A stretch of 64,000 nucleotides of DNA, from the NCBI RefSeq assembly GCF_029227855.1, contig NZ_CP074356.1; one strand, 5' to 3'. The stretch comes from Escherichia coli (GTDB lineage Bacteria > Pseudomonadota > Gammaproteobacteria > Enterobacterales > Enterobacteriaceae). The position numbers are program-made. How positions within the stretch are numbered: position 1 is the first letter of the stretch; each line of letters opens with the position of its first letter. This document shows, piece by piece, positions 54,001 to 57,000 of the stretch.

Positions 54001-57000
54001 CCCGATATCATTAACGATACTGGAGAAATTCTCATGCTCAATGGCTTCACCGCCGAGCATGATGACAAACGTTTTTCCCCGGTGGGTATTGATATAGGGA
54101 ACCGAATGGCGGAATCCCTCGACCAGCTCGGTTTTACGTTCCTTTACCACGGCACACCTCTTTGCATGATTATTCGAAATTAGTGTATTTTTATTCTGTT
54201 TTTTCGCAGGGTGCAAGTGTAAATTTTATGCGAGAGCGACTTTTTTATCAGTAATGCCGTGAATATAAAAAGAATGTTTACCGTTTATTAGATGACAGAT
54301 TATGCGTCTTTCGCTAAAGTTTCCGGTCAAATTAGTCGTTTACTTGTTACACAGCTTAGATTTCTTTTGCTCGGGAGAGGCATGTCAGGATCCAACACTG
54401 CAATCAGCCGTCGTCGTTTACTGCAAGGCGCGGGTGCCATGTGGCTATTGAGCGTAAGTCAGGTCAGTCTGGCTGCGGTCAGCCAGGTCGTGGCGGTGCG
54501 CGTCTGGCCTGCGTCCAGCTACACCCGCGTGACGGTAGAATCAAATCGTCAGCTGAAATATAAGCAGTTCGCGTTGAGTAACCCGGAACGCGTGGTGGTG
54601 GATATCGAAGATGTAAACCTGAACTCGGTACTCAAGGGGATGGCGGCACAAATTCGTGCAGACGACCCGTTCATCAAGTCGGCGCGCGTCGGGCAATTTG
54701 ACCCGCAAACCGTACGCATGGTTTTTGAATTAAAGCAAAACGTAAAACCGCAGCTGTTTGCCCTTGCGCCGGTCGCCGGGTTTAAAGAGCGTCTGGTGAT
54801 GGACCTCTATCCGGCCAATGCACAGGATATGCAGGACCCGCTGCTGGCGCTGCTGGAGGATTACAACAAAGGCGACCTCGAAAAGCAGGTGCCGCCAGCG
54901 CAAAGTGGTCCACAACCAGGTAAAGCAGGGCGCGATCGTCCGATTGTCATTATGCTTGACCCTGGCCACGGTGGCGAAGACTCCGGTGCGGTGGGGAAAT
55001 ACAAAACGCGCGAAAAAGACGTGGTATTGCAAATAGCTCGCCGTTTGCGCTCTCTGATCGAGAAAGAGGGCAATATGAAGGTGTACATGACGCGCAATGA
55101 AGACATCTTCATTCCGTTGCAAGTGCGCGTAGCAAAAGCCCAGAAACAGCGTGCTGACCTGTTTGTCTCTATCCATGCCGACGCCTTTACCAGTCGTCAG
55201 CCGAGCGGTTCCTCTGTGTTTGCGCTCTCAACCAAAGGTGCAACCAGTACTGCGGCAAAATATCTGGCACAAACCCAGAACGCCTCGGACTTGATTGGTG
55301 GCGTGAGCAAAAGCGGTGACCGCTATGTCGACCACACCATGTTCGATATGGTGCAGTCGCTGACCATTGCCGACAGCCTGAAGTTTGGTAAAGCGGTGCT
55401 GAATAAGCTCGGGAAAATCAACAAGCTGCATAAAAATCAAGTTGAACAGGCCGGGTTTGCCGTACTAAAGGCACCAGATATTCCCTCCATTCTGGTCGAA
55501 ACGGCGTTTATCAGTAACGTTGAGGAAGAACGTAAACTGAAAACGGCGACTTTCCAGCAGGAAGTTGCGGAGTCTATTCTTGCGGGGATTAAAGCGTATT
55601 TTGCCGATGGGGCGACGCTGGCGAGAAGGGGATGATAAAAAGGCGCTGAATGGCGCTTTTTTTATGGGAGAACAGAAACAAAAAAACACCCGTTAGGGTG
55701 TTCAATAATTGGTTGCGGGGGCCGGATTTGAACCGACGACCTTCGGGTTATGAGCCCGACGAGCTACCAGGCTGCTCCACCCCGCGTCACCGTACTGCTT
55801 TATTTCATCAAATTTGATTGGTTGCGGGGGCCGGATTTGAACCGACGACCTTCGGGTTATGAGCCCGACGAGCTACCAGGCTGCTCCACCCCGCGTCACC
55901 GTACTGCTTTACTTCATCAAATTTTAATTGGTTGCGGGGGCCGGATTTGAACCGACGACCTTCGGGTTATGAGCCCGACGAGCTACCAGGCTGCTCCACC
56001 CCGCGTCCGTGGATGCGCACTATACTCCGCTCGCGTTTTCATGCAACCTTTTTTTTACCCCGATCACGGATTCGGCATGATTTTGAACAAAAACAAATCA
56101 CTAAAGCCTATTTTTTGTGCAAAATTTGCGTCAGGGAGAGGCTGCTCATTTCATTAAACGCGGCGGTTTGTTATCTTCGTTGCGCCTTATTTTTTAACCT
56201 GAAGAAGAGAACAATGAAAGGACGTTGGGTAAAGTACCTTCTTATGGGCACGGTTGTGGCAATGCTTGCCGCCTGCTCTTCCAAACCAACCGATCGCGGA
56301 CAGCAATATAAAGACGGGAAATTTACCCAGCCTTTCTCTCTGGTGAACCAGCCAGATGCCGTTGGCGCGCCGATTAACGCCGGTGATTTTGCCGAGCAAA
56401 TTAACCATATCCGTAATTCGTCACCGCGTCTGTATGGCAACCAGAGTAATGTTTATAACGCGGTGCAAGAGTGGCTGCGCGCAGGCGGTGATACCCGCAA
56501 TATGCGCCAGTTCGGCATTGATGCCTGGCAGATGGAAGGTGCCGACAACTATGGTAACGTGCAGTTTACAGGCTATTACACGCCGGTAATTCAGGCGCGC
56601 CATACCCGCCAGGGCGAGTTCCAGTATCCTATTTACCGTATGCCGCCAAAACGTGGTCGTCTGCCGTCTCGTGCGGAGATCTACGCGGGGGCATTGAGCG
56701 ATAAATACATCCTCGCTTACAGCAACTCCCTGATGGATAACTTCATTATGGATGTGCAGGGTAGCGGGTATATTGACTTTGGTGATGGCAGTCCGCTTAA
56801 CTTTTTCAGCTATGCAGGGAAAAACGGTCATGCATATCGCAGCATTGGTAAGGTGCTGATCGACCGTGGCGAAGTGAAAAAAGAAGATATGTCGATGCAG
56901 GCGATTCGTCACTGGGGCGAAACACACAGTGAAGCCGAGGTTCGCGAGCTGCTGGAACAGAACCCGTCTTTCGTCTTCTTTAAACCGCAATCTTTTGCAC

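Follow-up and report, generated by a model that had tools for sequence, protein, structure and literature searches.

Why does a bacterial chromosome carry three identical initiator transfer RNA (tRNA) genes in a row, separated by spacers that are themselves nearly the same, and what drives their transcription? These questions are raised by a locus on the minus strand of a 64,000-nucleotide (nt) stretch of the Escherichia coli contig NZ_CP074356.1 (assembly GCF_029227855.1), hereafter called the window. An earlier note, made from the sequence alone, had described there, at positions 55679-56060, three formylmethionine tRNA (tRNA-fMet) genes behind a stringent-type promoter. Our analysis leaves very little doubt that the locus is the E. 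coli metZ-metW-metV operon (metZWV), the main source of initiator tRNA (tRNAfMet1 type, with G46), and that its transcription and processing follow the scheme described below. The operon, its growth-regulated promoter, and its terminator are already known, and only two trivial changes in the second spacer depart from the known system.

The identity of the genes was established with ARAGORN, which called three tRNA genes and no others in the 64 kb of the window; each is a tRNA-Met(CAT) gene of 77 nt on the minus strand. Copies 1 to 3 are metZ (55929-56005), metW (55819-55895), and metV (55710-55786), and each was also recognized by the Rfam model RF00005 with 61.4 bits (gathering score, 29). 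The three genes are 100% identical to one another, metZ is identical to K-12 b2814, and a repeat finder gave start-to-start distances of 110 and 109 nt, in agreement with the spacing of about 109-110 bp noted before. The cat anticodon was placed by ARAGORN at position 35, and the minimum-free-energy fold is a cloverleaf. A position-by-position script found that C1 lies unpaired opposite A72, while positions 2-7 pair with positions 66-71. The anticodon stem, UCGGG/CCCGA, contains three consecutive G:C pairs (G29-G31:C39-C41), the D stem, GAGC...GCUC, provides the A11:U24 pair, the variable loop AGGUC carries the G46 of the tRNAfMet1 type, and the CCA 3' end is encoded in the genes. All the hallmarks of an initiator are thus present. 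The earlier note had claimed three identical 77-nt initiator genes and had named a tRNA scan as the way to check them; ARAGORN and Rfam both recovered the three genes, and the hallmarks confirm the initiator type. In the mature molecule, the C1xA72 mismatch would promote formylation and the avoidance of EF-Tu, and the three G:C pairs of the anticodon stem would direct the tRNA to the ribosomal P site. Formylation by Fmt and initiation in the P site are known for the identical K-12 tRNA (PMC3017606).

The chromosomal surroundings were compared with those of other strains. Over positions 55500-56300, several E. coli chromosomes are 100% identical to the window, and this stretch was matched in 5,425 of the 5,426 complete E. 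coli genomes. The RefSeq annotation of a 100%-identical strain lists mltA, three tRNA-Met genes, and amiC, so that the unit is indeed bounded by mltA and amiC as had been proposed. Mapped from that strain, mltA occupies 56214-57311 on the plus strand and is divergent from the tRNA genes, and amiC occupies 54382-55635 on the plus strand and is convergent with them. In K-12 MG1655 the counterparts are metZ, metW, and metV (b2814-b2816), annotated as "tRNA-initiator Met(CAU)." The K-12 operon shares the genes, their order, and the neighbors mltA and amiC with the window, and the tRNAs, promoter, leader, first spacer, and terminator are identical. Over 701 nt the two loci are 99.3% identical and differ at five positions, namely, one base upstream of the A-tract that precedes the promoter, a G-to-A change and a 1-nt deletion in the second spacer, and, past the terminator hairpin, two further changes. 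The alignment showed zero differences from the A-tract through metW and none within any of the tRNAs.

Upstream of metZ, the arrangement TTGCAT-16 nt-TATAGT followed by a GC-rich discriminator was found as stated in the earlier note, at 56046-56011 on the minus strand. The -35 hexamer TTGCAT lies at 56041-56046, the promoter spacer of 16 nt at 56025-56040, the -10 hexamer TATAGT, preceded by a G, at 56019-56024, and the discriminator, GCGCATCC, at 56011-56018 (6 of its 8 bases are G or C). Directly upstream of the -35, on the same strand, an A-tract, AAAAAAAA, is followed by GG (56049-56056) and resembles an upstream (UP) element, a role that we infer from its position and composition. From the A-tract to the tRNA start, the sequence is base for base that of K-12 in the MG1655 alignment. 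Taken together, the A-tract, a weak -35, the 16-bp spacer, a near-consensus -10, and the GC-rich GCGCATCC would constitute a sigma-70 promoter driving the operon. This architecture resembles that of rrn P1 and other stable-RNA promoters, with which it shares the upstream A-rich tract, the nonconsensus -35, the 16-bp spacer, and a discriminator starting with GCGC. Such a promoter would support strong transcription in fast growth and would be sensitive to guanosine tetraphosphate (ppGpp). It differs from the rrn P1-type promoters in that tandem P1/P2 promoters were not found here and in that its -10 is TATAGT, not TATAAT. We also compared the leader with the spacers to see whether the promoter had been duplicated and rejected this, since the 80% overall identity of the third repeat unit comes down to about 10 matching bases out of 32 once the tRNA is left aside, which is near chance.

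If these elements form the promoter, are they kept in other species? An exact-pattern scan for tandem copies of the fMet tRNA (at least two per locus), made on one genome per species in the genomes of 100,044 species, recovered 99 loci, almost all of them in Enterobacterales and most with the order mltA, two or three fMet genes, and amiC. Loci were then selected for a -10-like hexamer in register; 81 of the 95 usable ones passed, providing 77 distinct upstream sequences, and the upstream sequences aligned across loci without gaps. The hexamer situated exactly 16 nt from the -10 was TTGCAT in 61 of the 77 sequences and TTGCAA in another 13 (together 74 of 77), the discriminator followed the pattern GCGC[A/T]TCC in 74 of 77, and the base immediately 5' of the -10 was always G. 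The promoter spacer has a fixed length and a variable sequence, with a mean column identity of 0.67 versus 0.96 for the -35, and conservation is poor further upstream (identity, 0.51). An A-run and then GG or GGG preceded the -35 in nearly all Enterobacterales loci, the mean A fraction being 0.60 versus 0.37 in the promoter spacer. The pentamer ACGGA stood before the first tRNA copy in 80 of the 99 loci.

The function of this sequence has been addressed by genetics. Kapoor et al. (2011) described two E. coli mutants in which tRNAfMet1 had dropped sharply. Each carried a single change in the metZWV promoter, in one case T to C inside the -10 and in the other G to A just 5' of it, and both changes cut reporter activity (PMC3017606). 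According to the account in the same article of work by Nagase et al. (1988), the start site of metZWV was mapped and ppGpp lowers the expression of the operon in the stringent response. Since the window promoter is identical to that of K-12, the results on the mutations and on ppGpp should transfer to it. The description of the promoter as stringent type is thus supported by the K-12-identical sequence together with the ppGpp effect relayed in PMC3017606.

Some loci of the comparative set deviate from this scheme. Six tandem initiator tRNA genes are present in Marinobacter nauticus (L032) and five in Ferrimonas balearica (L061), with at most 3 mismatches to the E. coli sequence over 73 nt. 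A tblastn search found neither mltA nor amiC at these two loci. Their promoter differs, with the sequence CTTGCA...TATGATACGCCCCGC, and is shared by another locus with six copies (L090).

Where does transcription start? The capping of RNA with nicotinamide adenine dinucleotide (NAD) consists of initiation with NAD replacing ATP. The metZ and metZ-metW-metV transcripts were reported to be NAD capped, the capped form being the full-length polycistronic precursor (PMC13273102; bioRxiv 10.1101/2024.04.04.588121), from which it follows that the start should be an A. Residues of A occur 5, 9, and 13 nt downstream of the -10, and the most likely start is the A at 56010, 9 nt after the -10. This distance presumably matches the geometry of rrnB P1. 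The proposed start would belong to a 5-nt leader, ACGGA (56006-56010, minus strand), to be removed by RNase P, and transcription from 56010 to the hairpin and U-run past metV (about 55677) would yield one polycistronic precursor of about 334 nt.

The intrinsic terminator after metV (55677-55703, minus strand) consists of a hairpin at 55703-55684, with a stem of 8 bp (4 G:C pairs) and a loop of 4 nt, and of the T-run right behind it, TTTTGTTT. Its predicted fold has an energy of -11.1 kcal/mol (z = -4.3), a stability that no shuffle out of 200 attained, so the hairpin terminator claimed before stands, and the span of 55679-56060 takes in the whole transcription unit. At 55641-55657, in the gap separating the stop codon of amiC (55635) from the terminator of metV, AAGGCGCTGAATGGCGCTT forms a second hairpin, which has T-runs on both strands. 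It folds with -9.2 kcal/mol on the plus strand (z = -2.0) and -5.8 kcal/mol on the minus strand (z = -1.9) and is probably the terminator of amiC, acting in both directions and serving as a backup for metZWV. Two further Rfam matches were discarded. The one to the rimP leader, just after metV, scored 21.4 bits against a gathering score of 47 and was put down to similarity in the tRNA 3' end and terminator; the one to AaHKsRNA82 was far below its gathering score and was treated as chance or terminator similarity.

Three observations weigh against the promoter and transcript proposed here. A generic sigma-70 consensus scan over 55300-56500 found no promoter, including at TTGCAT/TATAGT. The -10 sequence TATAGT was present in 75 of the 77 distinct upstream sequences, a frequency that arises partly by construction because the loci were chosen on this hexamer. 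Finally, the precursor seen by northern blot and bound by Hfq was sized at "about 500 nt" (PMC10710024), which exceeds the predicted length of about 334 nt; even read-through to the second hairpin would give about 370 nt, short of the published size. The failure of the scan at TTGCAT/TATAGT and the greater length of the reported precursor would both suit a true promoter located further upstream in the mltA-metZ intergenic region, with TTGCAT/TATAGT being a chance match. Nevertheless, nowhere in 55300-56500 did the same scan report a promoter-like site, and it is the -35, the discriminator, and the 16-nt spacing that are kept across Enterobacterales, whereas the sequence further upstream is not. 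Moreover, the published single-base changes that sharply reduce tRNAfMet1 and reporter activity lie in or next to this very -10. We therefore consider an upstream promoter highly improbable. The scan missed the site because TTGCAT agrees with the consensus TTGACA in no more than 3 of the 6 bases, and the promoter call rests on the cross-species footprint and the published genetics, not on consensus matching. As both the comparative and the genetic evidence are strong, we set the miss aside as an argument against the TTGCAT/TATAGT promoter.

A different arrangement would be the separate transcription of each tRNA copy from a promoter in its own spacer. The spacers do hold TTGATG and TACGGT, which bear a loose likeness to promoter hexamers, but these are only 11 nt apart, so no sigma-70 promoter is possible. 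Scans revealed neither promoter-like sites in the spacers nor terminators between the copies, and in the literature full-length reads and northern bands cover the whole operon. With all this against it, transcription copy by copy is next to impossible, and a single transcript started in front of metZ is the reading that we retain.

From this transcript, three identical tRNAs would be released by successive cuts. RNase P would cleave the 5' end of each tRNA at a conserved GGA/TGA; an endonuclease would cut the AU-rich spacers, and a 3' exonuclease would then trim each piece to the encoded CCA, an order of events that we propose by inference. The trinucleotide GGA, less often TGA, was observed before every copy, in leader or spacer, across species (56006-56008, 55896-55898, and 55787-55789 in the window; loci L008-L106), and the two bases next to the tRNA copies, G in position -2 and A in position -1, are almost invariant. 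A title cited in PMC12381190 and PMC5143459 states that a 5'-flanking guanosine specifies the RNase P cleavage of pre-tRNAfMet, and the presence of GGA or TGA before every copy fits the determinant named in that title.

What remains to be explained is the likeness of the spacers. The first internal transcribed spacer (ITS), between metZ and metW, is ATTAAAATTTGATGAAGTAAAGCAGTACGGTGA (55896-55928, minus strand), 33 nt long, AU-rich, and identical to that of K-12. The second, between metW and metV, is ATCAAATTTGATGAAATAAAGCAGTACGGTGA (55787-55818, minus strand), 32 nt long, and holds the G-to-A change and the 1-nt deletion relative to K-12. The earlier note had called the spacers near-identical and had named their alignment as a check; aligned, the two differ by two substitutions and one indel. 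Both are predicted to be unstructured.

A first explanation is that this near-identity has no function and was simply left behind by tandem duplication and gene conversion among the repeat units, in other words by concerted evolution. The mean identity of spacers within a genome is 0.81 (n = 54), versus 0.62 for the last spacers of random species pairs, and the spacers are strongly diverged across species and genera, changing greatly from one genus to another. Spacers that are alike within a genome and diverged between species are the pattern expected from concerted evolution. The lability of the copy number (2 or 3 from species to species, 1 to 3 within E. coli) also agrees with it. We hold a functionless origin by concerted evolution to be a serious possibility that stops short of being probable.

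The behavior of the spacers in K-12 speaks against the absence of function. Both spacers copurify with the small RNAs (sRNAs) RybB and MicF (PMC4583644), and the full precursor binds Hfq, competing with HqbA; a spacer fragment was likewise bound by Hfq (PMC10710024). In this respect the locus resembles the ITS-metZWV sponge of Lalaouna et al. (2015; cf. the 3' external transcribed spacer [3'ETS] of leuZ), since the first spacer of the window is the very K-12 ITS that copurifies with RybB and MicF and has complementarity to the RybB seed. Duplex prediction with whole sRNAs, RybB and MicF, was not informative, as 12-41% of the shuffles reached the observed energy, and it was replaced by a seed-restricted test in which nt 1-16 of RybB were paired with the spacers and compared with shuffles. 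The predicted energy of the RybB seed with the first spacer, the same in K-12, was -15.1 kcal/mol, reached by 0.6% of the shuffles. For the second spacer, the predicted duplex is weaker in the window strain (-12.4 kcal/mol; 2.2% of the shuffles) than in K-12 (-15.8 kcal/mol; 0.3%), so the variant of the window strain costs about 3 kcal/mol of predicted RybB pairing. Predicted seed pairing with RybB thus beat 97.8-99.7% of the shuffles, which counts against a purely functionless origin. In contrast, MicF seed pairing was no better than with shuffled spacers (10-20% of shuffles reached it), a result that sides with concerted evolution.

A trace of this complementarity was found in other species. 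The 6-mer AGCAGT, complementary to the RybB seed, occurred in 51 of 172 spacers, in many Enterobacterales genera and at varying places within spacers that have diverged elsewhere, a count that ignores shared ancestry. It was the commonest of its 180 letter permutations, for which the median count was 0, and this too counts against mere concerted evolution. The widespread AGCAGT in the spacers is best taken as a lead. On these grounds the spacers might form a conserved RybB-binding (sponge) module across Enterobacterales, which would link growth-rate-driven tRNA transcription to the activity of an envelope-stress sRNA; judged from sequence complementarity, we regard such a module as tentative and rather unlikely. 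Concerted evolution and functional spacers are not mutually exclusive.

The first spacer, usually about 35-50 nt long, reaches about 120-170 nt in some species (L015, L076, and L087; also L014, L050, and L062). The long first spacers of L015, L076, and L087 share an insert, GTGAATCCTTAGGA...TAAGTGACT.AGGTGAACGAGG, which we take to resemble the enterobacterial repetitive intergenic consensus (ERIC), or intergenic repeat unit (IRU), repeat.

How stable is the number of copies? We sampled 60 genomes, spread by rank, out of the 5,425 matching complete E. coli genomes. Three copies were present in 54 of them, two in 3, and one in 2, and none had four. The strain of the window, said before to keep all three copies, does so and is therefore in the common E. 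coli state. The remaining genome of the sample is the assembly of a sequence type 648 (ST648) strain (NZ_CP008697.1), which is unresolved at this locus and whose listed match lies elsewhere in the chromosome; a deletion of the tRNA array in this strain was rejected, because an "N" stands exactly at the junction. Some of the low E. coli counts may be collapsed repeats. Among the E. coli matches, two copies were seen in H42, H53, H60, H101, and H112 and one copy in H113 and H114. Across species, in the set that required at least two copies, arrays of three were found at 61 loci and arrays of two at 33 loci.

The number of copies bears on the supply of initiator tRNA, which the three metZWV genes, together with metY elsewhere, would keep high. 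When metZWV is deleted, cells retain about a quarter of their initiator tRNA, grow about 20% more slowly, and initiate more often at non-AUG codons (PMC8248024; PMC3017606). In a systematic deletion study, metZWV was one of the few tRNA units that could not be lost without a clear growth defect (PMC11480407). The fourth E. coli initiator gene, metY, upstream of rimP-nusA-infB, likewise encodes an initiator tRNA. Unlike metZWV, it is present in a single copy, lies at another locus outside the window, and heads a protein-coding operon; its regulation also differs, by cyclic AMP (cAMP)-CAP and ArgR, and in K-12 it encodes the tRNAfMet2 variant (PMC3017606).

In E. coli, the junction after metV (55677-55709) is a site of variable insertions. 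In about 1,960 complete genomes of the species, the agreement with the window ends a few bases past metV. The uropathogenic E. coli (UPEC) strain 536 has about 37 kb at this place, comprising a type VI secretion cluster and a sugar phosphotransferase system (PTS) module, with its own, different terminator after metV, and the ST648 strain has the sugar module only. The window strain carries no island at the junction, and amiC follows directly. The loci labeled L004, L107, L005, and L003 are tied to this comparison.

Elsewhere in the window, other sRNAs were found by Rfam at gathering score. They are GcvB (60330-60535, minus strand; 199 bits), two copies of OmrA/OmrB (26294-26375 and 26491-26578, plus strand; 86 and 97 bits), and STnc490 (26589-26712, plus strand; 145 bits), and they fit an E. 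coli chromosomal context.

The outcome of this analysis is the correct annotation of a textbook operon, with two by-products, the promoter footprint across species and a hint of a widespread RybB-complementary motif in the spacers. Should the sponge reading be true, the interaction itself is already published for K-12, and what would be new is the breadth of its conservation, in the form of an AAGCAGU motif, and its variation among strains. For the biology of E. coli, the importance of the locus lies in the fact, established for K-12, that the metZWV operon supplies most of the cellular initiator tRNA and that its dosage bears on growth, cold tolerance, and the fidelity of start codon selection.

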